Under the pieces are notes generated by a model. It had not been told where the DNA came from, ran no database searches, and worked only from the letters and a program-made list of their open reading frames with translations. A DNA stretch of 64,000 nt from Bdellovibrionales bacterium (GTDB lineage Bacteria; Bdellovibrionota; Bdellovibrionia; Bdellovibrionales; DASUEL01), in NCBI GenBank assembly GCA_050250255.1, contig JBFWOZ010000005.1, positions 41,854 through 105,853 of the forward strand, written 5' to 3'. The translations under genes were made by a program, and so were the position numbers. Positions 35,600 through 59,313 of the stretch are shown piece by piece; positions within the stretch are counted from its first letter, which is position 1; each line of letters starts with the position of its first letter.

Positions 35600-36181
35600 T
35601 TAAGATAAAAGTTTTTCCAACGACTTCTCGACCTGGATGCGAGAAGTCTTGGAAGGTAAGGATGCATACAAAGCTTCATGGTCTCGAACAGAGGAAACCA
35701 AAAGGGTTTCAATTCCTTCTATTTGAGGCAGAACGCCTTGGAGAGAGAGGAGCTTCGTTTGAAATTGTAACTTCAAAATTTCTAGCTGGCGGCTTTTTTG
35801 AGCCGCCTCTAAAGAATGCCCTAACAAATCAAAGAGCGGCGAGAAATCAATAATACCCTCATGACTTAATCGTTCAACAACCGCTACAAAGTAGAGCGCC
35901 GTCTCAATACGTTCATAATTTTCGCGAAGACCATCAAATGTTTTTATGAGCTGAGCTTCCGTCAGTCGGTGAAGGCCCCCTTCACGCGTAGATCTTTGAA
36001 ATTGAATATGAACGTAATGTGTAGGCTCAAGTGTCCCACCACCAAAACGTTTGCGGCTTTGGACCGCGGACTTTGCGAAAAAACTCATTTTGGCGCCTTG
36101 ACGAGTGAGCCCATGCACAATGAGGTCGCCCTCTCCATGACGGATGGTGCGCAAAATAATAATCTTTTCTTCTTCTTTCAT
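35600..36181 (-). CDS. recO: DNA repair protein RecO
   Basis: IILRTIRHGEGDLIVHGLT..GAK...AKSA..SRKRFGG.LEP OB-fold N-terminus. Confidence 0.88.
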   Translation of the reverse strand: MKEEEKIIILRTIRHGEGDLIVHGLTRQGAKMSFFAKSAVQSRKRFGGGTLEPTHYVHIQFQRSTREGGLHRLTEAQLIKTFDGLRENYERIETALYFVAVVERLSHEGIIDFSPLFDLLGHSLEAAQKSRQLEILKLQFQTKLLSLQGVLPQIEGIETLLVSSVRDHEALYASLPSKTSRIQVEKSLEKLLS

Positions 36182-36190
36182 GGCGTCCTA

Positions 36191-37543
36191 TTAAGTCGCA
36201 AGCGAACTATAATAATAAAGACCAAAAAGCACCGAGATCGCGCTGATATCCGCAAGAATAGTAAACAAAGGAACCGATACAAACGCAGGATCAAGTTTTA
36301 ATTTTTGTAAGAGCACGGGAATAAGACTTCCGGTGATGACGGTAAGAATAATTTGGAGGCCTAAACTACAACCCAAGAGGACTGAGAGGTTCGCCTGTCC
36401 AACGAGCCAACGGCACCAAATAAATAAAAATCCCCCGAAGAGCACGCTAAAGATCGAACCGAGTTGCACTTCTTTGAGAAGATGAGCCGTAACTCCACTA
36501 AAAGAGAATTCTCCGTGTTTGGCCGCACCGACCGCCACCGTTGCGGATTGGTTTCCTGCTGTAGAGCCCAAAGAAAGAAATAGGGGAATAAATCCAGCTA
36601 AGGCCCACCAGGTTTCACGTTTATCGTCAGGAACAATCAATTCAAAAATAAAAAAGCACAAGATACCGCCACCAAAAGTGAGAAGAAGCCACGGAAAACG
36701 TGCCTTAAAGTGCCCAGCAATCGTCTCCTCTCCACCCCAGCCGGCACGCCCCATGGCGAGGAGATCTTCATGAGCTTCCTCACGAATAATATCGATGACG
36801 TCATCTACCGTGATAATTCCCACAAGTTTTCCGCTGTCTACCACCGGAAGCGCAAGGAAGTCATAGCGCTCGACAACCTTGGCTACATCTTGCGGAGGAA
36901 GATCAATCGCCACACTGATGATATCGGGATCCATAATATCTTTTAAAGCCACGTTCGGGCGAGAAAGAATCAAGTCCTTCACGCTTAATACGCCGACAAG
37001 ATTATTTGTTTCATCAATGACGTAAATATAAATTGCCGTATAGGAGTCTTCTTCTCGGCTTTGAATTTCTTTAATGGCATCAGAGACACTCAAGTTACAA
37101 TTGAGCGCAAGGTAATCGGAGCTCATGATTGCACCCGCTGAATCCTCAGGGTAGCTCATGAGATCAGCAACGTCTTCGGATTCCTCTTTCACCATGCTAG
37201 CGAGAATGTCTTCTGACATGTTTTCAGGAAGTCGACCTAACAGATCGGCCGCATCGTCAGAATCCATTCGCTGAACAATCTGATTCGCTTCTTTAGGTTC
37301 AAGACTCTGAAGAAGCTCTACCTGCGTATTGGGCTTGAGATAACTGATCACATCGGATCGTTTATCCATCGAAGCAATCATTTTGAAAATCGTGAGACGT
37401 TCGTCGGCTTCTAGTTCCTCAATGAGAGTTGCGATATCGGGTGTATGCGCTTTTTTCAGAATTTTCTGGACGTTCTGTAAAGCTCCCCGTCTGGAGAGCT
37501 TTCGAATGCTCGAAATGAGGATGGAAGCGCGGCGATCGATCAT
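36191..37543 (-). CDS. mgtE: Magnesium transporter MgtE
   Basis: MDSDDAADLL, YPEDSAGAIM, CBS pair, GIITVDDVID, KARFPWL, DPAFVSVP..T...D. Confidence 0.95.
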   Translation of the reverse strand: MIDRRASILISSIRKLSRRGALQNVQKILKKAHTPDIATLIEELEADERLTIFKMIASMDKRSDVISYLKPNTQVELLQSLEPKEANQIVQRMDSDDAADLLGRLPENMSEDILASMVKEESEDVADLMSYPEDSAGAIMSSDYLALNCNLSVSDAIKEIQSREEDSYTAIYIYVIDETNNLVGVLSVKDLILSRPNVALKDIMDPDIISVAIDLPPQDVAKVVERYDFLALPVVDSGKLVGIITVDDVIDIIREEAHEDLLAMGRAGWGGEETIAGHFKARFPWLLLTFGGGILCFFIFELIVPDDKRETWWALAGFIPLFLSLGSTAGNQSATVAVGAAKHGEFSFSGVTAHLLKEVQLGSIFSVLFGGFLFIWCRWLVGQANLSVLLGCSLGLQIILTVITGSLIPVLLQKLKLDPAFVSVPLFTILADISAISVLFGLYYYSSLAT

Positions 37544-38529
37544 GAAGCCAGCTTATCAAAGTCAGGACGTTTGCGTCTAAAATAAAAAATAGAACCAAAA
37601 ACACCCCAAGACAGCATCACGATTTGATTCGCCGTAATGGCAGTTGGCCCGATAGTGCTTTGATATCCTAAATACATCGTGAAGAGAGCTAAGAAAGCCG
37701 CTTGCCCAACTCCAATTCCTGCCGGAGCAATAGGCGCTGCCATCGCAATAAGCCCCACGGGAACGATGAAAAAATAAGCCTGCCAAGGAATCGCGGCACC
37801 CATAGCCTCACCGACGAGAATAAAAAATATCACGGCAATCGATTGCGAAATAACACTCAAAATAAGGGCTAGAAAAAGAGTGCCCGTGTGGCTCCGGTAT
37901 TCATAAAAAACTTCGTGAAGACGCTGGAGAATTTTTCCGCCAGGGAGACGTGCAAAAATACTTTGAAACGCGTTTTTCGAACGGCCTGAAAAGGAGAGAG
38001 CTAAGATGAGACCAAAAATAAGAAATAATGCGAAAGCTCCTATCGCGAGAGTGCGTAAATCCTCTTTCCCATCCATCAAATGGTAATTTGCCGCGAGTGC
38101 CACAAGGGAAACCACCACCATAGAGAAAAAACCAATAAGACGATCGATAAAAATACTTGCCGCTGAAGCGAGTTTTCTCTCGGGATAATCTTGAGTGGTA
38201 TAATAACCTTTTACTAGATCGCCCCCAACTCCACCTGGCATCGCAAGGTTAAAGAAAAGACCGATAAAACTCAGTTTCAACGTGGACCAGTATGTGACCG
38301 CAAAACCCTGACATCGTAAAAGGATGTACCAGCGAAAGTTATTGATGCAGATATTGACCAAAGTAACTAGATATCCCAAGAGTAAAAAAGTCGGAGTGAA
38401 TATGGTCATCAGTTGGTTAAAATCTAAATGTCCACTCTTCACAAGCCAGGCGATCAAGCCAGCGGCAACGAGGACTTTTACGAGGGTGATTATGTTGTTT
38501 TTCATCTTCTTAGAATCCATAGACCTCAT
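37540..38529 (-). CDS. Lysylphosphatidylglycerol synthase TM-domain (flippase-like) protein
   Basis: RWYILL, FIGLFFNLAMPGGVGGDLVK, IDRLIG, PIAPAGIGVGQ motifs. Confidence 0.88.
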   Translation of the reverse strand: MRSMDSKKMKNNIITLVKVLVAAGLIAWLVKSGHLDFNQLMTIFTPTFLLLGYLVTLVNICINNFRWYILLRCQGFAVTYWSTLKLSFIGLFFNLAMPGGVGGDLVKGYYTTQDYPERKLASAASIFIDRLIGFFSMVVVSLVALAANYHLMDGKEDLRTLAIGAFALFLIFGLILALSFSGRSKNAFQSIFARLPGGKILQRLHEVFYEYRSHTGTLFLALILSVISQSIAVIFFILVGEAMGAAIPWQAYFFIVPVGLIAMAAPIAPAGIGVGQAAFLALFTMYLGYQSTIGPTAITANQIVMLSWGVFGSIFYFRRKRPDFDKLAS

Positions 38530-38608
38530 TGACGTTTCGCTCTAAAAACACCTAAAATGTCGACTTCTTTGGACATACGATTTAAGTCTTTCGCATGAGG
38601 GAAGTAAA

Positions 38609-39916
38609 ATGAAAATTACAGTCATTGGCACTGGCTATGTAGGACTTGTTGCGGGAGTCTGCTTTGCAGATGCTGGGCATAGCGTCATTTGCGTTGATAA
38701 GGATCCTTCCAAAGTTTCCTCCCTTCGTGAGGGCCAGATTCCTATTTATGAACCGGGACTTGAAGAGATTATGGAAGGTGCGATTAAACGAAAACGCATT
38801 CAATTCACTACCGATTTAGCGCAAGGAGTGAGTGAGAGTTCCGTTATTTTTATTGCTGTAGGAACTCCCGAAGGACCTAATGGAGATGCCGAAATGGGTC
38901 CCCTCATGGGTGTGGTTGAGCAAATCAGCCAATCTGCACGAGATAAAAAGTATGTTGTTTTAAAGAGCACCGTTCCGGTAGGCACCGCTAAATTAGTTCA
39001 AACTCTTTTCGACCAAAAATCAAAGTTTTCTGTGGAAGTGATCAATAATCCCGAGTTTTTAAAAGAAGGCGCCGCCATCGATGACTTCTTAAAACCTGAT
39101 CGCGTTGTCATCGGCTGTCGTACAGAAGAAGCTAAGCAAATTATGCAGGAGCTCTACGACCCGTTTTTAAAAAATGGAAACCCCATCTTCTTTATGGATA
39201 ACGCTTCTGCAGAACTCACAAAATATGCGGCAAATGCATTTTTGTCGGTCAAAATTAGCTTCATTAATGAACTCGCACAACTGGCAGACAAAGTAGGAGC
39301 CGATATCAATCAAGTTCGCAAAGGTTTCACCTCTGATTCTCGTATCAACCCTGCTTTCTTTTACCCAGGTATCGGTTACGGCGGAAGTTGCTTTCCGAAA
39401 GATGTAAAAGCTCTCGTACGTACAGGCCAAAAAAATGATGTGGCAATGAAAATTGTTGCTTCCGCCGACGAAGTCAATTTTGAACAGCGTGAAGTATTGT
39501 TTCAAAAAATTAAAAAACATTTTGGTGATCTCAAAGGCAAACAAATCGCCCTCTGGGGTTTAAGCTTTAAACCACGTACCGATGATGTTCGCGAAGCCCC
39601 GGCTCTGGATCTCATCAGCAAACTCTCTCAAGCGGGCGCACAGATTTGCGCCTTCGATCCCGTAGCGTCGGAGAATGCGCAAAAAGCTTCTGACGTGAAA
39701 TTTCAGGTCGCTTCTTCCGCGATGGAAGCTGTGGAAAATGCCGATGCACTTGTGGTTGTGACTGAATGGAATGAATTCCGTAATCCTAATTTAGAAGATT
39801 TGAAAAAGAAGCTGAAACAAGCGGTCATATTTGATGGTCGCAACATTTTTGAACCTGCGCGCATGAAACAAGCGGGTTTTAAATATTACTGTTTTGGTCG
39901 AGAAAGTTTGAGTTAA
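38609..39916 (+). CDS. ugd: UDP-glucose 6-dehydrogenase
   Basis: IGTGYVGL, IAVGTP, KSTVPVGT, NPEFLKEG, GYGGSCFPKD, FKPRTDDVRE. Confidence 0.95.
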   Translation: MKITVIGTGYVGLVAGVCFADAGHSVICVDKDPSKVSSLREGQIPIYEPGLEEIMEGAIKRKRIQFTTDLAQGVSESSVIFIAVGTPEGPNGDAEMGPLMGVVEQISQSARDKKYVVLKSTVPVGTAKLVQTLFDQKSKFSVEVINNPEFLKEGAAIDDFLKPDRVVIGCRTEEAKQIMQELYDPFLKNGNPIFFMDNASAELTKYAANAFLSVKISFINELAQLADKVGADINQVRKGFTSDSRINPAFFYPGIGYGGSCFPKDVKALVRTGQKNDVAMKIVASADEVNFEQREVLFQKIKKHFGDLKGKQIALWGLSFKPRTDDVREAPALDLISKLSQAGAQICAFDPVASENAQKASDVKFQVASSAMEAVENADALVVVTEWNEFRNPNLEDLKKKLKQAVIFDGRNIFEPARMKQAGFKYYCFGRESLS

Positions 39917-39918
39917 CT

Positions 39919-40851
39919 ATGTCGAAAAAAAAAGCTCTCGTTGCCGGCGGTGCCGGATTCATCGGCAGCCATCTCTGTGAATACCTTCTTTCAAAAAATT
40001 ATGACGTACATGCACTCGATAATTTGGTCACCGGCCGAAAAGAGAACATTCAGCATTTAATTGTAAAGGGATTGCAATTTCATCAGCTGAATTTGATTGA
40101 GCCTTTTGATTTAAATGTCACCTTTGACGAAATTTATAATTTAGCCTCCCCCGCAAGCCCCGTGGATTTTGCAAAAATGCCTCTCTTTATTTTGCAGACT
40201 TCTAGTGTAGGTCATTTGCGTCTACTTGATCTTGCAAAAAAAATGAATGCACGGATTTTGATCGCCAGCACGAGCGAAGTTTATGGCGATCCCATCGAAC
40301 ATCCGCAAACTGAGGAATACTGGGGAAATGTGAATCCCATTGGTCCACGTAGCTGCTATGATGAGGCGAAACGTTTTGCTGAAGCTTTGAGCATGGCCCA
40401 CTTCCGTACAGAAAAAACGCAAATACGTATTATCCGTATCTTCAACACCTACGGGCCACGTATGCGTCCTGATGATGGCCGCATTATCCCGAACTTCTTC
40501 ATGCAAGCTTTGAAAAAGCAACCACTCACTATTTACGGAGATGGGACGCAAACGAGAAGTTTCTGCTACGTTTCGGATATGGTGGAAGGCATGTACGCAC
40601 TCATGCAGAGCATGGTCACCACGCCCGTCAACATTGGTAATCCTTCGGAGAAAAGTGTTGCGGAGATTGCAGATGAGATCAATCGACTCACCGGCAACAC
40701 TCAAGAACATATTTTCTTGCCATTACCAGAGGATGATCCACGAAGACGTTGGCCCCAAATCGATAAAGCAAAAAAACTTTTGAAATGGGAGCCGCGTGTG
40801 GATTTAGCCGAAGGCCTCGAAAAGACCCTCGCATTTTTCAAAACAATCTAA
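39919..40851 (+). CDS. UDP-glucuronate decarboxylase (UDP-xylose synthase)-like SDR
   Basis: GGAGFIGSHL, NLASPASP, ASTSEVYGDP, YWGNVNPIGPRSCYDEAKR, DDPRRR. Confidence 0.92.
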   Translation: MSKKKALVAGGAGFIGSHLCEYLLSKNYDVHALDNLVTGRKENIQHLIVKGLQFHQLNLIEPFDLNVTFDEIYNLASPASPVDFAKMPLFILQTSSVGHLRLLDLAKKMNARILIASTSEVYGDPIEHPQTEEYWGNVNPIGPRSCYDEAKRFAEALSMAHFRTEKTQIRIIRIFNTYGPRMRPDDGRIIPNFFMQALKKQPLTIYGDGTQTRSFCYVSDMVEGMYALMQSMVTTPVNIGNPSEKSVAEIADEINRLTGNTQEHIFLPLPEDDPRRRWPQIDKAKKLLKWEPRVDLAEGLEKTLAFFKTI

Positions 40852-40860
40852 AGTCGCTGA

Positions 40861-40977
40861 GTCGTTCGAAAATAGGTTAGATGCTAGGCGCGAGGGAGTG
40901 AGCGCGGAGACATACTTCCTGTATGTCGCACAAGCGAATGACTGAGCAACGACGCAGATAGCCTATTTGCGGACGAC
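40861..40977. mobile_element. MITE-like element (about 117 bp) with imperfect 24-bp terminal inverted repeats
   Basis: GTCGTTCGAAAATAGGTTAGATGC ... GCAGATAGCCTATTTGCGGACGAC; central hairpin GACATAC-TTCCT-GTATGTC; fills the gap between two convergent stop codons. Confidence 0.75.
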
Positions 40978-40978
40978 G

Positions 40979-42385
40979 TCAGTAAGCGTGAGGCGACACG
41001 AAACCTTTAAAGATCGTCAAGAATAAGATTTTGATATCAAGCCACAATGACCAATGTGTGATGTAGTAAAGATCGTGTTCGATGCGTGCTTGGAGACTCG
41101 TATTCCCGCGAAGGCCATTGATCTGAGCCCATCCGGTCATACCTGCCTTCACCTTGTGACGAAGCATGTAGCCTGGAATTTCTTTTTTAAATTTTTCGAC
41201 GAAAACAGGACGTTCTGGCCGCGGCCCCACGCAACTCATTTCGCCTTTTAAAACGTTGAAAAGCTGCGGAAGTTCATCAAGTGATGTTTTACGAGTGAGC
41301 TTTCCAATCCAGGTCACTCGATCATCATTTTGCGCGGCCCATACGGCTCCACTTTTAGATTCCGCATCGATTCGCATACTACGAAACTTGATCATGAAGA
41401 AAGTTTGTCCATCAAGCCCCATGCGTTCTTGATAATAAAAAATCGGTCCACGAGAACTTAATTTAATTGCCAGAGTGATAAAAAGCATGACCGGCGAAAA
41501 GAGAGTCAGTGCGAGAGATCCAAAAACAATATCACTAATACGTTTTAAAACAGCATTCCAACCTAAGATAGGACTTTGATTCAAACTTAAAAGCGGAAGA
41601 CCGTCAAACTCCTCGACTTCAAAGCCAAGGATGGAATACTGACTGATATCGGGAACAATTTTGATATCGATATTGAGGTTCATGAGAGAATTAAGGATGG
41701 AATCCATTCGACTGGCATCTTCGTTTCTCAAACAAATGGAAACGTAATTCGCTCCCAACTTTTGAGCGATAGACTCTAATTCCTCGGTCGTTCCCAGCAC
41801 TTCATTTTTTTGCCAACCAGCTAAATTGGAGTTAGAACCTACCGGAACAATTCCCAATACTTGAATGCCAAGTTCATGGTTCTCGATCATGCGTTTTTTC
41901 ATCGCGAGCGCCAGCTGCGGATCACCCACTAACAATAAATAGCGTTGATTCAACCCACGCCGACGAAGAAACTTTAGCCCTCCACGAAGCAAAGAGCGGC
42001 TCGCACAAAGACCAAAAATCGCAAAGACGAAAAAGAGAAACATGACCCAGCGGGAGAGTTCCTCACGGGCAGTAAAGTGGGAGTAAGTGACAAATACGAG
42101 AAATCCAATAGCCGAAGCCTTGATCAGGGTAAAAAGCTCGGCTCCGAAGGTCTCCATACGCCAACTTTTATAGGCGCCAGAAAGTTGTAAACCCAAATAC
42201 CAGACAAACATGATGAGTAAAGTGGCATTGAGATAGCTATCAAAAGGTGCAATCTCAACTTGCGGGATTCCGTCGATAGGTTGGTAAAAGCGCACATAGT
42301 AGGCCAAAAGCCAGCAGAGACCCACCACAAGGGCATCGCTCAACTGAAATAAAAGCCGAAAAAATCGGTGATGGGTTCTGAGCAT
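40979..42385 (-). CDS. Undecaprenyl-phosphate glucose phosphotransferase (WcaJ/PssA family)
   Basis: Four N-terminal TMs; KRISDI, KFRSM, RKTSLDELPQLFNVLKGEMS.VGPRPE, GMTGWAQING.RG, DLYYI. Confidence 0.93.
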   Translation of the reverse strand: MLRTHHRFFRLLFQLSDALVVGLCWLLAYYVRFYQPIDGIPQVEIAPFDSYLNATLLIMFVWYLGLQLSGAYKSWRMETFGAELFTLIKASAIGFLVFVTYSHFTAREELSRWVMFLFFVFAIFGLCASRSLLRGGLKFLRRRGLNQRYLLLVGDPQLALAMKKRMIENHELGIQVLGIVPVGSNSNLAGWQKNEVLGTTEELESIAQKLGANYVSICLRNEDASRMDSILNSLMNLNIDIKIVPDISQYSILGFEVEEFDGLPLLSLNQSPILGWNAVLKRISDIVFGSLALTLFSPVMLFITLAIKLSSRGPIFYYQERMGLDGQTFFMIKFRSMRIDAESKSGAVWAAQNDDRVTWIGKLTRKTSLDELPQLFNVLKGEMSCVGPRPERPVFVEKFKKEIPGYMLRHKVKAGMTGWAQINGLRGNTSLQARIEHDLYYITHWSLWLDIKILFLTIFKGFVSPHAY

Positions 42386-42465
42386 GAATCTCCTGTGTAT
42401 GCTTGAGGTCTTGTTTTACCTCTTTCCTTTATTGAGAGCAACAGACCTTTAAGGTATGTAAAGGT

Positions 42466-43602
42466 ATGGAAACGCTGTTAAAAGGTAAAAAAGTGGCCAT
42501 TGTCCACGACTGGATGACGGGCTATCGCGGAGGAGAAAAAGTGCTCTCCGAAATCGCCGCCCTGTTCCCCGATGCCCCTATTTATACCCTCGTGCACAAA
42601 AAAAACTCCACAAGTCGTGATCTCGAAGCCCGAAACATCCGTACGGGCCTCATTAACAAACTTCCTTTTGGTCAAAAATACTATCGCCACTATTTGCCGT
42701 TCTTCCCACTCGCCGCCGAAACTCTTTTACCTCGAGGATTTGACGTGGTGATTTCTACCTCACACGCGGTTGCAAAATCTATCAATACTCGAGGAGCCGC
42801 TCACTGGTGCTATATTCACTCGCCCATGAGATATGTTTGGGATCGCTTTGATGATTATTTTGGAGCGGATATTGTAGGCGCGCTCCCCTCGAAATTATTT
42901 TTTAAACCTATCGCCCATGCTCTTAGCTTTTACGATCGTAAAACGGCCAATCGTGTAGATCAATTCGTCGCCAATTCACGGTTTGTCGCCACACGTGTGC
43001 GAGATTACTATTCCAGAGATTCTGAAGTCATTCATCCACCAGTGAATGTCGAACGCTATCGTTCTTTAGAAAGGAAGCCTGAAGATTTTTATCTGTTCTT
43101 CTCGGCCCTTGTCCCCTACAAAAAAGCAGATCACGCGATTCTTGCCTGCCAAAAACTTGGGAGAAAACTTGTGATTCTTGGCGATGGACCCGAGAAAGAA
43201 AAACTTCAGAAATTAGCGGCGGGAGCTCAGGTCGAGTTCATGGATGCGAGCTCCGACCAAGTCATCGAAGATTTGATGAGTCGAGCAAAGGCGTTTCTCT
43301 TTCCCGCAATTGAAGATTTTGGAATTGCGCCCGTGGAAGCTACGGCGGCGGGCCTTCCCATCATAGGACTCGCTCAAGGTGGACTCCTCGATAGCCAAAG
43401 TGATGAAACTTGCGTGTTTTACGCAGAACAGACCGTCGATGCTTTAGCGGATGCCATTTTGAAATTTGAAAAAGAAGCAAACCGGTTTGATCGTGAGAAA
43501 ATGTGGAAACAATGTCAGAAATTTGCCCCAGAACGTTTTCGTCAGAAAGTAACTGATTCACTACGCAGCTTTGAAAAGAATCATTTTAAAAATTTAAGAT
43601 AG
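42466..43602 (+). CDS. Glycosyltransferase family 4
   Basis: AIVHDWMTGYRGGEKV, YIHSPMRY.WD, LVPYKK, EDFGIAPVEA. Confidence 0.93.
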   Translation: METLLKGKKVAIVHDWMTGYRGGEKVLSEIAALFPDAPIYTLVHKKNSTSRDLEARNIRTGLINKLPFGQKYYRHYLPFFPLAAETLLPRGFDVVISTSHAVAKSINTRGAAHWCYIHSPMRYVWDRFDDYFGADIVGALPSKLFFKPIAHALSFYDRKTANRVDQFVANSRFVATRVRDYYSRDSEVIHPPVNVERYRSLERKPEDFYLFFSALVPYKKADHAILACQKLGRKLVILGDGPEKEKLQKLAAGAQVEFMDASSDQVIEDLMSRAKAFLFPAIEDFGIAPVEATAAGLPIIGLAQGGLLDSQSDETCVFYAEQTVDALADAILKFEKEANRFDREKMWKQCQKFAPERFRQKVTDSLRSFEKNHFKNLR

Positions 43603-44120: not shown

Positions 44121-45116
44121 TTACTCCCCGTTTTGCAGCTTAAGAAGCTGAGCATGGGCCGTCAGTAAATGTTTTTCGAGATCTGGATTGAGAAGCTCGA
44201 GCGAGATCAGCACGAGTCCTCGAAGGGTTTCTGGAGGAAGGCCTTGGGATTCGTAGTATTTGAAGAATTCAAATCCGCCCCATCGGCATCCACTGGTAGT
44301 TTCTAATCGTTTTTCTTGGCCGGGAGGTAAGAGTTTTATTTTTAAGTGTTGAGCGAGTTCTTGTATGAACGCTTCGCCGTCGACGTCTTCAAATACAATC
44401 GCCGCCCGATCAAACAATCGCGATTTCCCCGAGGTAAAAAAGGGCTTAGAACCAGCAAGTTTTTTAGATTCGAAATCTTCCACTAATTTTTTGTTCTCTG
44501 TCACTTTTGAATATAGCTCCAGCTTCTCTAGATCGAGAGCGCGAACCCACTCTGACAGGCCTGCAATCATGGGCGGGAGCCTAGAGCACTTAGCTCCAAG
44601 TCTTGCCACCGAAATACGATCCGATACATTCATAAAGTAAGCTGCAAACTGATGAATCGGCGGAACCTCTCTGCACAAATGAATTCCATGAAATACGGAG
44701 AGAGTAAAAATCTTCTTATTCGCAAGTTCGGCTCTTAACTTCTCAAGCCCAAAAATTTCTCCCGTCATCGGATCGTCAATCACATCCAGAAATAGAAGAC
44801 AATCTTTGCTCAACTTTGAGAGCCAATCATCCATATTCCCAATATCTTTTACGTCGAGTGGCTCACCCTGCACGCCTTCAATCGAAAGACTCTGCACGAT
44901 GGGATCAAAGTTCAATCCTGCACCTCTTAAATAAGCGAATTTTCTTTTGTGGGGATACATGCGTATGAGTCCGCGTGCGATCTCGTTCAAACCGGTGGAA
45001 AGATCAGGGTAGGCGCGGAGGGTTTCGACCGAGGTGCCCGGCTGAATCCCTAAAGAGGATACGAGTTTTTTTTCAAACTCCTGAAGACGCTCCTCAGGGG
45101 GAAAGGGGAACTTCAT
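44121..45116 (-). CDS. Divergent class-V aminotransferase / IscS-fold-like protein
   Basis: C-terminal RLFDRAAIVFEDVDGEAFIQEL...ETTSGC...PETLRGLVLISL resembles IscS RLP..LNVSF..VEGE.L...SSGSAC...HSSIRFSL; no SxHK PLP-lysine motif visible. Confidence 0.5.
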   Translation of the reverse strand: MKFPFPPEERLQEFEKKLVSSLGIQPGTSVETLRAYPDLSTGLNEIARGLIRMYPHKRKFAYLRGAGLNFDPIVQSLSIEGVQGEPLDVKDIGNMDDWLSKLSKDCLLFLDVIDDPMTGEIFGLEKLRAELANKKIFTLSVFHGIHLCREVPPIHQFAAYFMNVSDRISVARLGAKCSRLPPMIAGLSEWVRALDLEKLELYSKVTENKKLVEDFESKKLAGSKPFFTSGKSRLFDRAAIVFEDVDGEAFIQELAQHLKIKLLPPGQEKRLETTSGCRWGGFEFFKYYESQGLPPETLRGLVLISLELLNPDLEKHLLTAHAQLLKLQNGE

Positions 45117-45564
45117 GAGTCACTCCCGCTCGCATAGATCTTGGTACATGCACGAGATCTATAACGAGATTTTTTGTTTGGAATTCGGGGTACACAAAGT
45201 TTTTAGCAAAACCTAAAGATTCCGTAGGACAATTGGTCACGCAAATTCCACACATCACACAGCTATTGTAATCCACTTTAAAGCTTTCAATCTCTCGCTC
45301 AAACGGAACACCCTTCGATGTGCTCGGACGACGAATGCTCGAAGAATACTCAAAACCTTGAATTTGGATCGCATTCATTGGGCAGATCGCTTCGCACTTA
45401 AGACATCCCGTACATTCTTTGAAATTATTTTTGATACTCGCACGGGCCGCGCCAGGAAGAGACTTCACCACAAAAGGGTACTCCACCGTAAATGGCGGAA
45501 TTAAAAAAGTTCGGTAAATATGGCCGAACAAAAATCTGAGATGGTTAATTAATAACTTCCACAT
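45094..45564 (-). CDS. NuoI-like 2x[4Fe-4S] ferredoxin (second copy)
   Basis: TVEYP; CTGCLKCEAICP and CVMCGICVTNCP motifs; F.VDY..C as in NuoI. Confidence 0.88.
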   Translation of the reverse strand: MWKLLINHLRFLFGHIYRTFLIPPFTVEYPFVVKSLPGAARASIKNNFKECTGCLKCEAICPMNAIQIQGFEYSSSIRRPSTSKGVPFEREIESFKVDYNSCVMCGICVTNCPTESLGFAKNFVYPEFQTKNLVIDLVHVPRSMRAGVTHEVPLSP

Positions 45565-46628
45565 AGGTCCGACTGTCCAAACTCGATGCCAAGGCTTGCA
45601 ACGGCAAGCTCATAATCATCGACGTAAAGGTCTACACACAGTTTTTCAACGATTCCTACCATTCTCATCGAATGGCTTGTGAGCCGCAATTGATTTTCGC
45701 AAGAAGTCCCATACAGAGGTCCAGATCCTGACTCCACACCCACATTCCAATAACCTGCGGGAGCAACAAGCTTTGGATCTACATCTACGCGTACAGGGCC
45801 CTCAACAATTTTATCTAAGCAGAATTCTAGAATTTCCAGAGATTGGCGAATTTGAAAAAAGACGGAACGTACCCGAGTCACACCGTCCCCTTGAACTTCA
45901 CGAAACATTTTAGCTTCAAACCAATCGGTCGTACTTTGATAATCAAAATAATGAAGATCACATTTATCATAAACGCCGTAGGGAGCATGAATACGCAAAT
46001 CATGCTTCAATCCTGAAGCTTGCCCCAGTGGACCTAAAAAGGCGTAAGCAACCGCTTGTTCTTGCGTTAAAGGAAGTAGACCTACAAGTCTTTGTAAAAC
46101 AAGCTGGTCTCTGGAGAGATCTTTAAAATAAAGTCTCAATTCGTATTCTAGGTTACGAATTAGGCTCTTCATCTTTTTTCTTTCTCCAATAGAAAGATCA
46201 CGATCAATTCCGCCAATACAAAAAGTTTGGGGAAGAATGCGTGAGCCAGTGAGAAACTCTTGTCCTTCAAAAATTTGCTCACGCAGTCGATAAAGTTGCT
46301 GCGTACGAATAGGGTCATCAATCGCTTTAAAGATACGGATCAGATATTGAAAACACCATGCGAGTCTTTGAACTTCCGCATAAATCGTTCGGAGATACTC
46401 TGCTCGTTCAGGGACTTGGATTTTGTGAGCTTTTTCAAGGGCCGCCGCAAGCACCCACTCAGAGGAAATCGCTTCAAAAGGTGAAAACCGATCCGCCCAC
46501 TTGACAGACATCGCAATAGGCATGCGGTCCAATGTTTTCCATAGCGGTCTGTTCTCTGATCCCCAGGAAATTTCTACGCTCTTAATACGATCACCATTGT
46601 AGGTGATTTCTGAACGTTCGTTTAACAT
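45549..46628 (-). CDS. NuoD-like (49-kDa subunit / group-4 hydrogenase large-subunit fold) protein, divergent
   Basis: IQVPERAEYLRTIYAEVQRL, LRE.I....E.LTGSR......IGGI..DL, GPLGQASG..HDLR...PYGVY, GD...R......IRQSLEI, VES..G motifs. Confidence 0.85.
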   Translation of the reverse strand: MLNERSEITYNGDRIKSVEISWGSENRPLWKTLDRMPIAMSVKWADRFSPFEAISSEWVLAAALEKAHKIQVPERAEYLRTIYAEVQRLAWCFQYLIRIFKAIDDPIRTQQLYRLREQIFEGQEFLTGSRILPQTFCIGGIDRDLSIGERKKMKSLIRNLEYELRLYFKDLSRDQLVLQRLVGLLPLTQEQAVAYAFLGPLGQASGLKHDLRIHAPYGVYDKCDLHYFDYQSTTDWFEAKMFREVQGDGVTRVRSVFFQIRQSLEILEFCLDKIVEGPVRVDVDPKLVAPAGYWNVGVESGSGPLYGTSCENQLRLTSHSMRMVGIVEKLCVDLYVDDYELAVASLGIEFGQSDLCGSY

Positions 46629-46921
46629 GTGAGCAAGTTCTCCTGAAGTCTCTTTAAAATATGGCGCTGATTATTTGTGGAGATAAAAAAAGAAAACTCT
46701 TCATCTACGCTTGCAAAATAAAAGCGAACATAGAGTCCTTTTTGCGAGAAGAAATAAGAAAGCGGAAGACTTAAGCCCTGCTCTTTGAGTTTGTCGAGCT
46801 GAGAAAAAAGACGCTCTTCTTTAATTTCATAGGCCTCGTTCCCTCTTTCCTTTTGCACGGTGAGCGCCGGATTGGGAGAAAGAACCTTGTTAATTTCTGT
46901 TAGGTCCTTTGAGGGCTTCAT
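46622..46921 (-). CDS. Short NuoC-like protein (putative)
   Basis: Lies between the NuoB' and NuoD' genes with overlapping ends; EIKEERLFSQLDKLKEQG weakly resembles the NuoC N-terminal region (compare ELKKEQVIPVLRHLKQTG in this window's NuoCD). Confidence 0.5.
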   Translation of the reverse strand: MKPSKDLTEINKVLSPNPALTVQKERGNEAYEIKEERLFSQLDKLKEQGLSLPLSYFFSQKGLYVRFYFASVDEEFSFFISTNNQRHILKRLQENLLTC

Positions 46922-47378
46922 AAATGACTTTCTTTTGATCCATTTGTGGCTTCTGTTTATTTCTTAAGGCTTGAATGGCTTCTAAAACTGCTTCCGGCCT
47001 TGGTGGGCATCCAGGTACAAAAACATCGACGGGCAAAACGTCAGAAATTTTTAAAATCTTTTCACCCGACGCAGCATACGGAGCGCCCGAAAGAGCGCAA
47101 GCCCCAACGGCAATCACCGCACGAATCCCTGAGAGTTGAAAGTAAGCACTTTTGAGTTCTTCTACGAATTGAGCATCCACCCACCCACCGACAATCATGA
47201 CGTCGGCTTCTGATGGATGTTGAGCGACATTCTCTACGCCTAATCGAGTCCAATCATAGGTCGCCGTCGAAGCGTTTTCAACTTCAAGGTTACAGCAACC
47301 CTTTACCATGACCCATGGCACATGGACTTTTCTCTCAACCGCATCAACAAGATTTTTGAGAGAAGAAAAAGTTGCCAT
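46890..47378 (-). CDS. NuoB-like [4Fe-4S] subunit (second copy)
   Basis: GCCNLE, YDWTRLG, PSEADVMIVGG, VIAVGACA.SG, LPVDVFVPGCPPRPEA; all four N2 cysteines present. Confidence 0.9.
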   Translation of the reverse strand: MATFSSLKNLVDAVERKVHVPWVMVKGCCNLEVENASTATYDWTRLGVENVAQHPSEADVMIVGGWVDAQFVEELKSAYFQLSGIRAVIAVGACALSGAPYAASGEKILKISDVLPVDVFVPGCPPRPEAVLEAIQALRNKQKPQMDQKKVIYEALKGPNRN

Positions 47379-47902
47379 TAGATCCCCGCACGATGGCGTT
47401 CGTCTTCATCAAGAACTGAAACAATTCCACCTTGAAGAGCTGGTCTGTGAGCTAAATAATCAATGCCTTTTACAAAGTTTGTTCCTGATAATCCTGGTAC
47501 TTGCCATTCAGGCCCCATACGAACTGCATCCACTGGGCATGCTTCTTCGCAGAAACCACAAAACACACAGCGGAGCATGTCGATTTCGTAAGCGATCGGA
47601 AATTTTTCAACGCTCGGGTCATTGTGCTCGCTCGCGATGATCGTAATACATTGAGCGGGACAGTTCGTCGCACATAACATACAAGCGGTACAACGAATCG
47701 ATCCGTCTTTTTTCACTGTCAAAACATGCGTGCCCTTAAAACGAGGAGAGTATTCATACTTTTCCTCTGGATAATTCAAAGTCGGCATTCCTTTTTTGTA
47801 GAAAAGGTTCACGATCAAATTTTTAAAAGTAATCACAAGCCCAACGAGAATACCGGGAATATACCATTTCGCTAAGGGACTAGGTCGCTGTACGACACTC
47901 AT
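47378..47902 (-). CDS. nuoI: NADH-quinone oxidoreductase subunit I
   Basis: TLNYPEEK, PRFKG.H, CTACMLCATNCP, IDMLRCVFCGFCEEACPVDA. Confidence 0.95.
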   Translation of the reverse strand: MSVVQRPSPLAKWYIPGILVGLVITFKNLIVNLFYKKGMPTLNYPEEKYEYSPRFKGTHVLTVKKDGSIRCTACMLCATNCPAQCITIIASEHNDPSVEKFPIAYEIDMLRCVFCGFCEEACPVDAVRMGPEWQVPGLSGTNFVKGIDYLAHRPALQGGIVSVLDEDERHRAGI

Positions 47903-49374
47903 GCGTTCACCTCCGCGATAGTTGTTGCTGGAACACCCTTCATGTAGTGAACGGCTTCCGACAAGCTGACAGCCTCAGGAACAAAATTCACTCCACGCTT
48001 TACTTTGCGAATTTCGCCCGCATAATTCGTAAAAGTTCCATCTTTTTCCGCGAAAGACTTCATTGGAATTTGGTAAGAGAAGCCTGCAAACCCAGGAGAT
48101 TTACAAGAGCTCAGCCAAATTACATCGGAAACTTTTGTGAGCGATTTTGCGACTGAATCAAGCTCTGGATAAACCGCGAGGTTTTCAGGACCTGCTACAA
48201 CAACAGCTTTAATCGTTCCCGCCTCTACAAGCTTCATTAAATCTTTTAAAGATCCTTGAGCTCCAGAGTCTTTCATGACTTTTTGTAGACCCGCCGTATT
48301 TGGATTTTTATCTCCTCGGATCAATAAGCCGTCAAAAGTATCGAAAGTCGCTTCGTTGTTTTTCCAATGGAAAATATTCTTCGATTTCAGTTCTGTCGTA
48401 AAATACTTCGTAATATCGCTCAATTCCTCATTGGTGTACTGAGCCGTTAAAAGAAGTGCGATAGCTTGTGGTCCATGTTTTTTCAAAGTTTGCGCGGCTT
48501 GCTCAAGAGCTTCACGAGTGCTCAATTGACCATTTTTGCCTTGAGCATGTCTTAATCGAGCTTCTAGGTTCACAAACTTATAAACATCGCGACCTTCATC
48601 GCACATCCAGTGACCGTTTACCTTTTCGTCGTAAACGGGCTTCACGCGGAAAAGACCATTCTGGTTGTGAGAGATTTTTACCGCACAACCGGTAGCACAG
48701 CCATTACAGGTCGTTTCAAAGTCTTTGAGATACCAAACGCGCTGACGAAAACGGAAATCTTTTGAAGTGAGAGCTCCCACCGGGCAAATATCCACCGTGT
48801 TCACGGAATATTTGTTATCGAGAGGACGATTCTCAAACGTACCGATTTCGCTGTGATCACCACGATTAAAAATTCCAAGTTCGTTTGTCTTTGTCACTTC
48901 TTCTGTAAAACGAACGCAACGAGAACAAAGAATACAGCGTTCGCTATCAAGAACTACCGTTGGGCCAAGATCGACCACCTTGTGTTTTTTCTCTTTTTTC
49001 TCGCCCATTTCAGGATCGTATTTTCCGTAGGTCATGTAGAACTCTTGAAGCCCACATTCACCCGCTTGATCACAGATAGGACAATCAAGAGGGTGATTGA
49101 TCAAATGGAAATCGAGAGTCCACTTTACACTCTCTTTTACTTTTTCTGTTTTGTTGGTGACCTTCATTCCCTCGACAACGGGAGTGTTACAGGCGATTTG
49201 AAGTTTGGGATTCCCCTCAACTTCCACCATACACATACGACAAACGCCCGCGACGGAAAGTCCAGGATGCCAACAGTAATAGGCAATATCCTCTTTCAGC
49301 TGACTGAAAGCTTCCATAATGGTGGCGCCATCTTTAACAACAACTTCTTTGCCGTTAATGGTGCATTTGGGCAT
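47899..49374 (-). CDS. nuoG: NADH-quinone oxidoreductase subunit G (short form)
   Basis: True start MPKCTING at 49374; CWHPGLSVAGVCRMC, HPLDCPICDQAGEC, RCILCSRCVRF, CNGCATGC (N7), WMCDEGR. Confidence 0.93.
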   Translation of the reverse strand: MPKCTINGKEVVVKDGATIMEAFSQLKEDIAYYCWHPGLSVAGVCRMCMVEVEGNPKLQIACNTPVVEGMKVTNKTEKVKESVKWTLDFHLINHPLDCPICDQAGECGLQEFYMTYGKYDPEMGEKKEKKHKVVDLGPTVVLDSERCILCSRCVRFTEEVTKTNELGIFNRGDHSEIGTFENRPLDNKYSVNTVDICPVGALTSKDFRFRQRVWYLKDFETTCNGCATGCAVKISHNQNGLFRVKPVYDEKVNGHWMCDEGRDVYKFVNLEARLRHAQGKNGQLSTREALEQAAQTLKKHGPQAIALLLTAQYTNEELSDITKYFTTELKSKNIFHWKNNEATFDTFDGLLIRGDKNPNTAGLQKVMKDSGAQGSLKDLMKLVEAGTIKAVVVAGPENLAVYPELDSVAKSLTKVSDVIWLSSCKSPGFAGFSYQIPMKSFAEKDGTFTNYAGEIRKVKRGVNFVPEAVSLSEAVHYMKGVPATTIAEVNA

Positions 49375-50626
49375 AGCTCTTTCCTTCTCTGATGAACGTT
49401 TCAAATTCGTCACGAAATTTTGATACAAAACTAATAGCTGGTAATGCAGCGGCATCAGAAAGCGCGCAGATCGTTCGGCCCATCATGTTTTTAGAAACAT
49501 TAAGTACGAGATCTAAATCTTGAGGTTTTCCTTGGCCTGCAACAATTTTACGAAGCATTTTATCAAGCCATCCAGTTCCTTCACGACAAGGAGTGCACTG
49601 ACCGCAGGATTCATGATGATAGAAATTCATGATGACCGAGAGAAGATCCACCATATCGCGCGAATCATCGATGATAATCACAGCCCCTGAACCAAGCATG
49701 GAACCCATTTGCGCAAGACATTCATAATCCATCGTCGCCATTTTACATTCTTCAGCCGTTAACACCGGAGCGGAAGATCCACCTGGAATCACCGCTTTGA
49801 GTTTACGACCCGGTCGAAGGCCCCCACACTCATTATTTATGAGATCCATTAATGGATATCCGAGAGCCACTTCGTAAGTTCCAGGCTTGAGCACATCTCC
49901 ACTCACGGAGAAAAGCTTAGTGCCCGCAGATTTTTCAGTTCCAAATTTTCGGTAAGCGGCCGCACCATCGCGAATGATCGGGATCACTGCCGCTAAAGTT
50001 TCTACATTGTTCACGACGGTTGGTTTTCTTAAGTAACCTTTAACCGCTGGAAAAGGCGGCTTCAGCTTCGGCTGACCTTTCAATCCCTCAAGAGAAGATA
50101 TCATTCCTGTCTCTTCTCCACAGATATAAGCACCTGCCCCGCGATAGACATCCATGTCATGGTCAAAACCAGAACCTAAGATGTTTTTCCCGAGCATGCC
50201 TTCGTCGTAAGCTTCTTGAATCGCTTTTTCGAGGACTTTGTAAGCGTAATTATATTCACCACGAATGTAGATGTAACTTTTCTTCGATTGAATCGCGAAA
50301 CTGGAAATGATCATGCCCTCAATCAATTGGTGAGGAGCACGCTCCATCATCAAACGATCCTTGAAGGTTCCGGGCTCCCCTTCATCCGCATTGCAGAGAA
50401 GGTAACGTTCTTCATTGTTCTTGGGCAGAAAGCTCCACTTGGTTCCCGTAGGAAAGCCTGCGCCTCCACGACCACGAAGACCTGATTCTTTCACGGTGCC
50501 GATGAGCTCTTCAGGCTTCATTTTCAAAGCCTTTTTGAGAATGCTGTATCCATCGTGCTTGATGTAGCCCTTAATGCCTCGGTACTCGTCTTTATCGTAA
50601 TGTAATGTGAGGAGTTTTGATTCCAT
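49355..50626 (-). CDS. nuoF: NADH-quinone oxidoreductase subunit F
   Basis: GLRGRGGAGFPTG.KW, NADEGEPGTFKDR, GAGAYICGEET, ESCGQCTPCREG. Confidence 0.98.
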   Translation of the reverse strand: MESKLLTLHYDKDEYRGIKGYIKHDGYSILKKALKMKPEELIGTVKESGLRGRGGAGFPTGTKWSFLPKNNEERYLLCNADEGEPGTFKDRLMMERAPHQLIEGMIISSFAIQSKKSYIYIRGEYNYAYKVLEKAIQEAYDEGMLGKNILGSGFDHDMDVYRGAGAYICGEETGMISSLEGLKGQPKLKPPFPAVKGYLRKPTVVNNVETLAAVIPIIRDGAAAYRKFGTEKSAGTKLFSVSGDVLKPGTYEVALGYPLMDLINNECGGLRPGRKLKAVIPGGSSAPVLTAEECKMATMDYECLAQMGSMLGSGAVIIIDDSRDMVDLLSVIMNFYHHESCGQCTPCREGTGWLDKMLRKIVAGQGKPQDLDLVLNVSKNMMGRTICALSDAAALPAISFVSKFRDEFETFIREGKSYAQMHH

Positions 50627-50633
50627 CTTCTAC

Positions 50634-51140
50634 CTACTTGAATTCCGCAATCAGTTTATCGATTTTTTCTTGAGTGAGATTTTCATAGTATTCGTCGTTC
50701 ACTTGCATCATGGGAGCAGTTCCGCAAGAACCCAAGCACTCCACTTTCGTGACCGTGAATTTTCCATCTTTTGTCATCTCATCAAGGCCCACTTGAAATT
50801 TATTGAGAAGCTTCTGCGTGATTTCACGCCCTCCAGCCATACAGCAAGAGATGTTACAGCAAACTTGAATATGATATTTGCCCACGGGTTTTTTGTTAAA
50901 CATCGTGTAGAACATCGCCACTTCTTGAATACGAGCCGGTGGAATATCCATCTCTTTTGAAAGAGTGTCGATGACCTCAGGGCTGATCCAGCCATTTTCC
51001 TTTTGCGCTTGATAGAGGCAAGGAATGATCGCCGACATTTTATCTTCATAGCGATCCAATTCTTTTTTCACTAAGTCTTGGCCTTCTTTTGAAAGCTTAA
51101 AGGGAGCAGAATGTAGTTTTTCTTGTTGTGCCATCATCAA
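50634..51140 (-). CDS. nuoE: NADH-quinone oxidoreductase subunit E
   Basis: EVAMFYTMF, QVCCNISC, ECLGSCGTAP. Confidence 0.96.
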   Translation of the reverse strand: MMMAQQEKLHSAPFKLSKEGQDLVKKELDRYEDKMSAIIPCLYQAQKENGWISPEVIDTLSKEMDIPPARIQEVAMFYTMFNKKPVGKYHIQVCCNISCCMAGGREITQKLLNKFQVGLDEMTKDGKFTVTKVECLGSCGTAPMMQVNDEYYENLTQEKIDKLIAEFK

Positions 51141-51143
51141 CTC

Positions 51144-52823
51144 CTATCGATCCAATTCGCCAGCAATTAAATTGAGGCTTCCCAAAATCGAAATCACATC
51201 CGCCACAGGACCGCCCGTAATCATTTTTGGAAATGACTGATAAATCGCAAAACAAGGTGGTCGTGCTCTTAATCGGTAAGGTGCAGGGCCACCGTCACTC
51301 ACCACAAAAAATCCAAGCTCCCCGTTTGCAGCTTCGGTTGCATCATAGATCTCGCCAGCCGGAGGTCTGAGACCCTTAATCACAAGCATGAAGTGGTTCA
51401 TGAGGCCTTCAATGTTTCCGTAAACTTCTTTTTTCTCTGGAAGAACGATGTTTTTGTCGCGAATGGTGTAATCCCCACCCGGAGCGTTCTTGGCCACTTG
51501 TTCAACAATCGAAAGAGATTCTTTCATCTCTGCCAAACGCACGAGGTAACGATCGTAAACATCGCCCGTTGTTCCTACTGGAACATCAAAATCAAGCGTT
51601 TCGTATCCGTAATAAGGATCTGCTTTACGAAGATCTAGACTCATGCCCGTAGCTCTTAAGCAAGGACCAGTAAATCCATACTGAATCGCTTCTTCCACTG
51701 AGATACCACCCACACCGCGGGTTCGCGAGATCCAGATTTTGTTATTGGTAAGAAGAGCATCGATTTCGTCGACACCTTTACGAATGTCTTTCACGGCCTC
51801 AAGCACATCGTTGAACCAACCTGGAGGAGCATCGTAAGACATTCCACCAATACGAGTGAGAGAAACGGTCAAACGTGCACCACAAAGTTTTTCAAAAAGA
51901 GAGTAAACACGTTCACGATGCGTGAAGAGATAAAAGAAACCTGTAAGGGCTCCTAAATCCACCGCGTTCGCGCCGATACAGACGATATGATCAATCACGC
52001 GAGAGAGCTCTGCCAAAATAATCCGCATGGCTTTTGCTTTTGGCGGAATATCAATGCCGTACATTTTTTCAATCGCCTTACAGTAACCCACATTATTCAT
52101 AGGCGCCGAACAATAATTGAGACGATCTGTGTACGGAATGACTTGATTATAAAAGTGAGTTTCGCCCATCTTTTCAAAACAGCGATGAAGAAATCCTAAC
52201 TCCACTCCCGCGCGCGCTACGGTCTCACCATCAAGTTGCGCCATCACCCGAAGAGTTCCGTGAGTCGCTGGGTGAGAAGGACCGATATTGAGAGGCATTA
52301 ATTTTTTATCGGGATCTGGTTTATAAGTATCATCGTCTTCAAAGTGAAGAGGCATCACATCAGGACAATGTTGCTGGTAATCCGCTGGATAATCTTTACG
52401 AAGCGGGTGTCCCTTAAAGTGATGGTGAGTGAGAATTTTTTTAAGATTGTGGTGACCACGAAACTTCACACCGAACATGTCAAAGGCTTCGCGCTCAAAC
52501 CAATCGGCACCTTTCCAAACGGTGGTCGCCGTATCGATACTTTCGTTTTCCCCTACTTGAGCTTTAATACGAAGACGTTTTACCGTTTTCGAGGAGAACA
52601 GCTGATAGATCACTTCGAAACGCTTTTCGCGTATCGGGTAATCCACCGCCGTGACGTCCATCAAAAAATCAAACTGACCTGTTTGTTTTAAGTGGCGAAG
52701 AACCGGAATGACCTGTTCTTTTTTGAGTTCTAAAATATCGTTGCCGAAAGCCGTAGAAAATTTCATTTCTGAAGCCGGAACAAGATGACTTAAATCTGAT
52801 TTTAAATTTTCGATATTGCTCAT
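51144..52823 (-). CDS. nuoCD: Fused NADH-quinone oxidoreductase subunits C/D
   Basis: ADWFEREAFDMFG, GHPLRKDYP; NIGPSHPATHGTLR, GFLHR..EK, DRLNY, C-terminal GELDR. Confidence 0.97.
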   Translation of the reverse strand: MSNIENLKSDLSHLVPASEMKFSTAFGNDILELKKEQVIPVLRHLKQTGQFDFLMDVTAVDYPIREKRFEVIYQLFSSKTVKRLRIKAQVGENESIDTATTVWKGADWFEREAFDMFGVKFRGHHNLKKILTHHHFKGHPLRKDYPADYQQHCPDVMPLHFEDDDTYKPDPDKKLMPLNIGPSHPATHGTLRVMAQLDGETVARAGVELGFLHRCFEKMGETHFYNQVIPYTDRLNYCSAPMNNVGYCKAIEKMYGIDIPPKAKAMRIILAELSRVIDHIVCIGANAVDLGALTGFFYLFTHRERVYSLFEKLCGARLTVSLTRIGGMSYDAPPGWFNDVLEAVKDIRKGVDEIDALLTNNKIWISRTRGVGGISVEEAIQYGFTGPCLRATGMSLDLRKADPYYGYETLDFDVPVGTTGDVYDRYLVRLAEMKESLSIVEQVAKNAPGGDYTIRDKNIVLPEKKEVYGNIEGLMNHFMLVIKGLRPPAGEIYDATEAANGELGFFVVSDGGPAPYRLRARPPCFAIYQSFPKMITGGPVADVISILGSLNLIAGELDR

Positions 52824-52824
52824 G

Positions 52825-53382
52825 TTATTTCATCCACTCAGGTGGTTTCCAGTTGTCTTTCCAAGGTCGCGGAGCATAGGTCTCAATCATTTTCTGAATC
52901 GCCATCACTCCATCAAGCACAGCTTCAGGTGAGGGAGGGCAACCCGGAACATACACATCCACAGGAATCACTTTGTCGATTCCTTGAAGCACGTGATAGG
53001 CGCGGTAAAATCCACCAGAACTTGCACAAGCTCCCATAGAAAGAACAAATTTTGGTTCCAACATCTGTCGGTAAATATGCACAAGAACCGGCGCCATTTT
53101 TTCAGTAATCGTACCAGCTACAAGAAGAAGATCTGCTTGTCTTGGAGAGAATCGCACCACCTCTGCTCCGAATCGAGCTAAGTCATATTTTGGACCCATC
53201 ACCGACATAAGCTCGATTCCGCAACAAGCAGTCCCGTAAGGAAGCGGCCACAGAGAATTTTTTTGTCCCCAAGCTACTAAATCTTGAAGTCGTGTTGTGA
53301 ACACCGAGCTTTTTAAAAACTCATCCACTTCGTGGGAAGCTGGTGTCGCCGCATCAGTATTCGACGTCGCAGATACATTCAT
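52825..53382 (-). CDS. nuoB: NADH-quinone oxidoreductase subunit B
   Basis: [40 protein letters not shown]. Confidence 0.97.
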
Positions 53383-56071: not shown

Positions 56072-56080
56072 AAAACTCTC

Positions 56081-59286: not shown

Positions 59287-59313
59287 AACGTATCCTCCAA
59301 CTGCCCAGAACTC

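Follow-up and report, generated by a model that had tools for sequence, protein, structure and literature searches.

What can a second set of genes for the Q-module of complex I (NuoBCDI) do when it lies behind an intact nuo operon and brings no membrane genes of its own? This question is raised by a 64,000-nt stretch from the genome of a predatory-type Bdellovibrionales bacterium (assembly GCA_050250255.1, contig JBFWOZ010000005.1, positions 41,854 to 105,853), hereafter called the window, whose own numbering is used below. On its minus strand the main nuoB-CD-E-F-G-I operon (47378..53382) is intact, and after it come four genes that we call nuoB', nuoC', nuoD' and nuoI', followed by a gene for a protein with an IscS/NifS-like fold. 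Our favoured, still tentative, prediction is that nuoB'-C'-D'-I' encodes a soluble redox relay of three clusters with a remodelled pocket, which would neither reduce quinone nor pump protons. The module has kept its iron-sulfur (Fe-S) ligands, has lost the quinone residues, is under selection and is not accompanied by a second membrane arm; that its proteins assemble and are soluble, as well as the nature of its donor and acceptor, we infer.

Conserved and lost features of the module

The small subunit encoded by nuoB' (46890..47378, 162 aa) has all four ligands of cluster N2 (tandem C28-C29, C94 and C124). The gene nuoC' (46622..46921, 99 aa) corresponds to the N-terminal half of NuoC alone, nuoD' (45549..46628, 359 aa) to a 49-kDa-subunit fold without the quinone residues, and nuoI' (45094..45564, 156 aa) to a ferredoxin-type protein for two [4Fe-4S] clusters. 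Together with the IscS-like gene these minus-strand frames are open and unbroken, with successive overlaps of 1, 32, 7, 16 and 23 bp, just as an earlier reading made from the letters alone (the sequence-only reading) had described. In Pfam, B' matches PF01058 (E 1e-21), D' matches PF00346 and I' matches Fer4, though all three fall short of the curated thresholds that define true Nuo subunits; C' and the IscS-like protein have no Pfam family match. Identity to the main copies in the window is 35% for B', 24% for D' and 30% for I'. The motifs GCC, GAC and PGCPP of B' and the two CxxCxxCxxxC motifs of I' are in place in the window, as previously claimed, and all 12 Fe-S ligands (the four for N2 in B' and both ferredoxin motifs in I') are present in 13/13 genomes that carry the module.

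D' of the window was said to lack HPATHG, to have GSENR and DRFSP and to end in SDLCGSY, all of which we could confirm; its model takes the NuoD/49-kDa fold (predicted local distance difference test 89; template modelling (TM) score about 0.86). For comparison we assembled 42 D' sequences, comprising 31 near-full-length sequences among the ~40 from the protein search and 11 rows from genomes, with fragments and duplicates of genome copies dropped. The HPxxHG loop, the LHR His, the DRxxY Tyr, the equivalent of Asp139 and the last Arg are absent from every one of the 42. In Thermus, H38, Y87 and D139 are quinone-site residues (PMC4758237; articles are cited here and below for the portions available to us), and in this numbering the equivalents are each found in 0/42 D' sequences, so that survival of the quinone-site His or Tyr, named earlier as a possible counter-case, is not borne out by the alignment. 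The beta1-beta2 loop is gone as well. Two Arg near N2 are retained in 32/42 and 35/42 sequences, and conservation reaches at least 85% in 27 columns (n = 42), several of them new. Near-invariant and specific to the lineage are W91 (42/42), E52 (39/42), P28 and P133 (38/42 each) and W44 (37/42); judged by alignment, the new residues would be sited near the former quinone chamber.

Cysteines are not conserved in D': no Cys column exceeds 21/42, and CxxC occurs in 1/42. The lone C-terminal Cys pointed out previously does exist in the window; as a relic of NiFe ligands it fails, being present in just 16/42 orthologues, and on the same count we rejected it as a metal ligand. We also rejected a group 4 [NiFe]-hydrogenase, given these counts and the lack of N- and C-terminal Cys pairs in D'; a motif scan of the window genome suggested no NiFe large subunit. 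Automatic annotation labels D'-like proteins as 'Ni,Fe-hydrogenase III large subunit' or 'formate hydrogenlyase subunit 5'; these labels are wrong and could suggest a hydrogen metabolism that does not exist.

Contacts to the rest of complex I have changed, too. The D segment that we take to face the membrane in intact enzymes has a mean hydropathy of -0.29 in the module, compared to 0.9-1.2 in intact sets and 0.71 in eroded sets with a membrane arm; because this segment has turned polar, docking of the module on a membrane arm is unlikely. C' resembles the N-terminal domain of NuoC by structure (TM 0.61-0.65 to PF00329 clusters) and by position, while its sequence-profile match to NuoC is not significant; according to the alignment it is without the C-terminal WxERE/GHPLRKD half. 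It is a separate gene in 10/13 carriers, fused to D' in 2/13 and not found in 1/13.

The ratio of non-synonymous to synonymous substitution rates (dN/dS) is 0.02-0.07 for the unsaturated genes in two pairs of family f3 and 0.17-0.27 in a pair of family f8, several genes being saturated; over all, main copies show 0.01-0.08 and the module 0.02-0.27. No internal stop occurs in any of 13 D' matches. The module is therefore a selected and remodelled set of genes and not a pseudogene: unbroken frames, purifying selection and invariant residues led us to reject decay, and the frameshifts and dN/dS near 1 expected of a decaying duplicate were not observed. The earlier proposal of a maintained Fe-S wire that ends at neither a quinone nor a NiFe site thus stands.

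Probable descent from a second complex I

Outside the order, 115/158 genomes of the phylum have at least two NuoD-like matches, and 4/4 outside genomes tested have two NuoH, two L/M/N sets and two NuoD with one NuoF. In several families of other classes the second set is an intact stand-alone B-C-D-I operon. The closest named loci to one of these families belong to Bacteriovoracaceae and Halobacteriovoraceae, and the nearest matches outside the phylum, in a scan of 7/64 parts of the collection, are Bacteroidota, Latescibacterota and Acidobacteriota (ABCDHIJKLMN); both are of the 11-subunit kind without NuoEFG. Peredibacter has two nuo clusters (PMC13147790), and Bdellovibrio is listed as having a split nuo operon (PMC4758237). 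Other families (f20, f23, f29, f30, f33, f34 and f35) carry an eroded 11-gene second set directly upstream of the main operon (loci L139-L141, L147, L148 and L150-L152), whose NuoH groups, on long branches, with second-set NuoH. The eroded second-set NuoB of genome G336 (L119) has lost its N2 cysteines.

The module shares several traits with the second set. The spacer between the two NuoI motifs measures 38-41 residues in the module (13/13; 40 in the window), 40-43 in intact second sets (10/10) and 30 in main sets (8/8), NuoI' sharing an insert of ~10 residues with the second set. The gene order B-C-D-I with unfused C and D is likewise common to both. Counted over diagnostic columns, the second set is favoured 12 to 5, whereas in control remnants of the main set (described below) it is the main set that is favoured, 13 to 2; the main copies are the best-scoring group for D' in 0/11 and for I' in 0/11 cases. 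None of the 13 module loci contains membrane genes, the window genome has a single membrane arm, sited on another contig, and one NuoH was found in 9/10 carriers tested and none in the tenth (G042). This single NuoH groups with the main set in both carriers placed on the tree. Three antiporter subunits are present in carriers G000, G003, G008, G015 and G044, with two extra in G012. Carriers hence hold no more than a single membrane arm, and wherever its type was tested it belongs to the main set. The insert, the gene order, the unfused C and D, the diagnostic columns and the single main-type NuoH make it likely that the module descends from the second, NuoEFG-less complex I, with loss of the membrane arm. 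The sequence-only reading missed this likely origin as a remnant of a phylum-wide second enzyme.

Several observations speak against this descent. The eroded 11-gene sets are without the NuoI insert (spacer 28-29, 9/9), and the diagnostic columns of B' taken separately favour the main set 2 to 1. In trees of B+D+I and of I alone, one of them from a quick search, the module sits on a long branch next to the 11-gene sets that are eroded, and is not placed. Approximately unbiased tests reject neither grouping with the main set (p 0.087) nor grouping with the intact second set (p 0.082).

A third intact EFG-less complex I lies beside korAB in scattered genomes (L043 in G007 and L153 in G399) and was likely acquired horizontally; ABCDH stretches matching it occur in L063, L064, L066, L068, L069 and L074.

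Distribution and remnants of the main set

B' and D' co-occur in the same 13/61 relatives. By the D' profile, carriers make up 12/251 genomes of the order (each at least 80% complete) and fall in four families. In a tree of the main NuoD (one gene, 37 rows) they are scattered around the order's base and interspersed with nested non-carriers, a pattern that we read as ancestral presence of the module in the order followed by several losses. The family of Bdellovibrio bacteriovorus seems to be without it. In family f9 (G009, G020 and G029) neither NuoB nor NuoD gave a match in 3/3 genomes and NuoF was absent in the two tested; complex I may be missing there.

The module is directly behind nuoI in 9/13 carriers, after inserted DNA in two more and elsewhere in two (G037 and G044), the latter being those with the C'-D' fusion. 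This attachment to nuoI would suit a non-catalytic decoy or an assembly or regulatory partner of the main complex I that binds main subunits, with clusters that serve folding or the sensing of iron, oxygen or redox state. We consider such a role rather unlikely, as the membrane-docking surfaces are polar or deleted, C' is halved, the module has moved off the nuo genes in the two genomes just named, and the alignment puts the new invariant D' residues close to the former quinone site. A further argument comes from G042 (L036:1-3542 and L037:8013-9617). Here the module is intact despite an eroded main complex: NuoF is without flavin/NADH motifs and NuoD without the loop His, the main Fe-S ligands being largely present, and NuoH was not found in this 85% complete genome. 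The same genome speaks against the dependence on NADH from NuoEFG that had been suggested for the module.

A mirror image of this situation is found in family f21. Five genomes were chosen because their main NuoD match was single or weak; in 5/5 NuoF is absent, a single NuoH is present and the second set is intact, showing that this set can stand without NuoF. Four of the five contain a stand-alone, eroded B-CD-I remnant of the main set (L154 in G370, L260 in G317, L261 in G346 and L262 in G410), which grade from a full complement of Fe-S ligands (G410) down to CD alone (G317). Together with G042, these remnants show that orphaned Q-modules linger repeatedly and need no supply of NADH; some lineages have them still after the clusters are gone. 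That a D fold is retained even without Fe-S ligands also fits the decoy just discussed.

The graded decay in the mirror remnants and in G042, the repeated loss of the module and its dN/dS above that of the main copies could alternatively mark a slowly eroding vestige without a new job, in which selection holds the fold until the genes are deleted. This, too, we regard as unlikely: D' orthologues are only 22-45% identical to D' of the window, yet none of the 13 matches has a stop, dN/dS is far under 1, and lineage-specific residues are invariant. Moreover, bacteria usually delete useless genes fast.

Possible electron route

Coming back to the predicted relay, and given descent from the second set, electrons would probably, though by no means surely, travel from NuoI' through N6a-N6b-N2 and a rebuilt pocket to a soluble acceptor. 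They would enter at the face of NuoI' where the ancestor took them from a donor other than NADH, such as ferredoxin or flavodoxin, and after passing the three clusters would leave at a pocket that NuoD' has presumably rebuilt in the former quinone chamber, with Pro replacing Tyr and with a Glu and Trp that are newly conserved. Without the beta1-beta2 lid and half of NuoC, N2 would be exposed to the cytoplasm, where electrons could be handed over, near N2, to a soluble acceptor. Modelling NuoG(1-300) as a complex together with B', I' and D' gave a score of 0.00, which counts neither way.

Weighing against the relay are the following points. Retention of the Cys residues may reflect folding needs alone, and the main-set remnants in G370 and G317, which persist without Fe-S ligands, indicate that such remnants can last without a redox function. 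The module is rare in the order and has been lost repeatedly. No donor gene tracks it: 2-oxoacid:ferredoxin oxidoreductase, which the window genome encodes, is present in only 7/13 carriers and in many non-carriers, and on these grounds we dropped a link to this enzyme. On a larger scale it is conceivable, rather than probable, that two sets of complex I were present at the origin of Bdellovibrionota and that each Q-module orphaned by loss of a membrane arm became a soluble three-cluster oxidoreductase, the module of the window being one of them, with a new substrate pocket and undescribed chemistry. The lingering of orphaned Q-modules supports a decoy or a vestige as much as it broadens the observation.

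The IscS-like neighbour

The last of the overlapping genes (44121..45116, minus strand, 331 aa) encodes a protein with the fold type I scaffold of IscS/NifS (Foldseek E 1e-13, TM 0.68), matching what had been proposed from the letters. Aligned by eye with the IscS of the same genome, using predicted strands, it is missing the Lys loop for pyridoxal phosphate (PLP; SAHK..GP), and in a weak profile alignment the position of the stacking His is Phe. It does not match PF00266, and its family finds no match among PDB sequences. The window genome encodes true IscS and SufS as well. The mobile-loop Cys (C277 in the window) is present in 25/37 homologues.

Within the order the gene occurs in 160/251 genomes, 9 of them carriers and 151 without the module, and it is absent from 3/12 carriers. 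Among 21 non-carrier loci it directly follows nuoI in 6 and lies within about 1 kb of it in 4, and 11 have no nuoI within 1.5 kb. A search of 5 genomes of other classes, run without a positive control, did not find it; one homologue is labelled Bdellovibrionales. This independent distribution led us to reject it as a part of the module; it is an older, order-wide neighbour of nuoI and likely non-catalytic.

Two further explanations involve this gene. In the first, the module would be a store or carrier of Fe-S clusters for complex I or further proteins, in which the IscS-like neighbour might take part. Cluster binding is indeed what survives, and in Archaeoglobus one ligand of a cluster is contributed by an IscS without PLP (PMC7585200); this would leave the conserved, ligand-free D' of 359 aa unexplained, and with a neighbour distributed independently we deem it improbable. 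The IscS of Archaeoglobus fulgidus without catalytic lysine (cited in PMC7585200) is among the top Foldseek hits and similar in fold; the protein of the window is only 10-16% identical to it, lacks, by alignment, the whole HK..GP loop, and belongs to a family in which the Cys is not universal.

In the second, close to what the sequence-only reading put forward, the module would be a swappable peripheral arm through which NuoEFG passes electrons of NADH to a sulfur acceptor on the IscS-like protein. Gene order and overlaps in the window and the aligned Cys that its IscS-like protein retains would fit. The many genomes with the gene and without the module, its absence from some carriers and the patchy Cys argue the opposite, the tandem Cys of B' are of the complex I type and not in the MBS arrangement, D' offers no conserved Cys, and G042 appears, from its motifs, to have no working NuoF. 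We had to abandon this proposal as very improbable.

Comparison with known systems

With the Q-module of complex I the module shares the tandem-Cys N2 ligands of NuoB, the two [4Fe-4S] motifs of NuoI and the NuoD fold; it differs by the lost quinone triad. Ehr, which we take to consist of NuoB/NuoCD-like subunits and its own antiporter-like membrane subunits without NiFe ligands, was rejected: the module loci contain no membrane genes, and the D' clade stands apart from hydrogenase-like groups on a long branch, so that a placement in an Ehr or hydrogenase clade, considered earlier as a counter-case, was not obtained. The eroded second sets in other classes of Bdellovibrionota have mostly kept Fe-S ligands and lost the quinone site, in some with the same exchange of Tyr for Pro, and differ by having A/H/J-N genes, a full NuoC and a short NuoI spacer.

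Among described enzymes, 11-subunit complex I-like enzymes without NuoEFG (Moparthi and Hagerhall, PMC3144371; Desulfitobacterium, PMC11238625) share B, C, D and I, the lack of E, F and G, the three clusters and a likely donor other than NADH; unlike these, the module lacks a membrane arm of its own, the quinone residues and half of NuoC. If it works at all, it would resemble the three-cluster arm of such enzymes or of MBS. The NUO11 complexes of Sulfolobus, Nautiliales and Desulfurobacteriales are also without H38, Y87 and D139 and were proposed to move electrons between soluble carriers (PMC4758237); however, they retain membrane subunits and vestigial NiFe cysteines and are read as ancestral, whereas the membrane-less module would reflect secondary loss. 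The MBS/Mbx sulfane-sulfur reductase has the same three-cluster wire to an end that is neither quinone nor NiFe (PMC7684303, PMC8165549). It was rejected as an identity, since its three-Cys proximal cluster, MbsL C85/C385 and Mrp-type pumps have no counterparts in the module, where B' has tandem Cys and D' no conserved ones.

In the literature covered, outside of which lie most subscription journals, we came across no account of a B-C-D-I module that is membrane-less and quinone-blind. The graded series from intact second set over eroded set with membrane arm and membrane-less remnant to loss looks like complex I evolution running backwards, and the main set shows the same erosion in mirror image. 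If a soluble oxidoreductase is what the genes encode, nature would have provided an N6a-N6b-N2 wire free of any membrane; being small and soluble, with N2 and no quinone site, such a B-C-D-I would suit the study of N2 chemistry and of the Q-module apart from pumping.

Neighbouring genes and further observations

A scan for promoters and terminators stayed at chance level (15 versus 13.9 and 14 versus 10.1). The main NuoG (47899-49374) is short, with 491 aa and a reduced C-terminal part; relatives are of similar length. Elsewhere, the nuoI of a main operon is followed directly by korA-korB (L144:2406-5779, G257), and another eroded B-D-I set is fused next to a gene for an Fe-S oxidoreductase (L121, G304, family f18).

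In relatives, the IscS-like gene is usually followed by genes that we take to be recO-, mgtE- and flippase-like; in the window (35600-43602) a block of presumed nucleotide-sugar and glycosyltransferase genes separates it from them. On the other side of the nuo genes, at 55406-60759, FHA/TonB-like, beta-barrel, TPR and coiled-coil genes resemble what is presumably a gliding-motility cluster.

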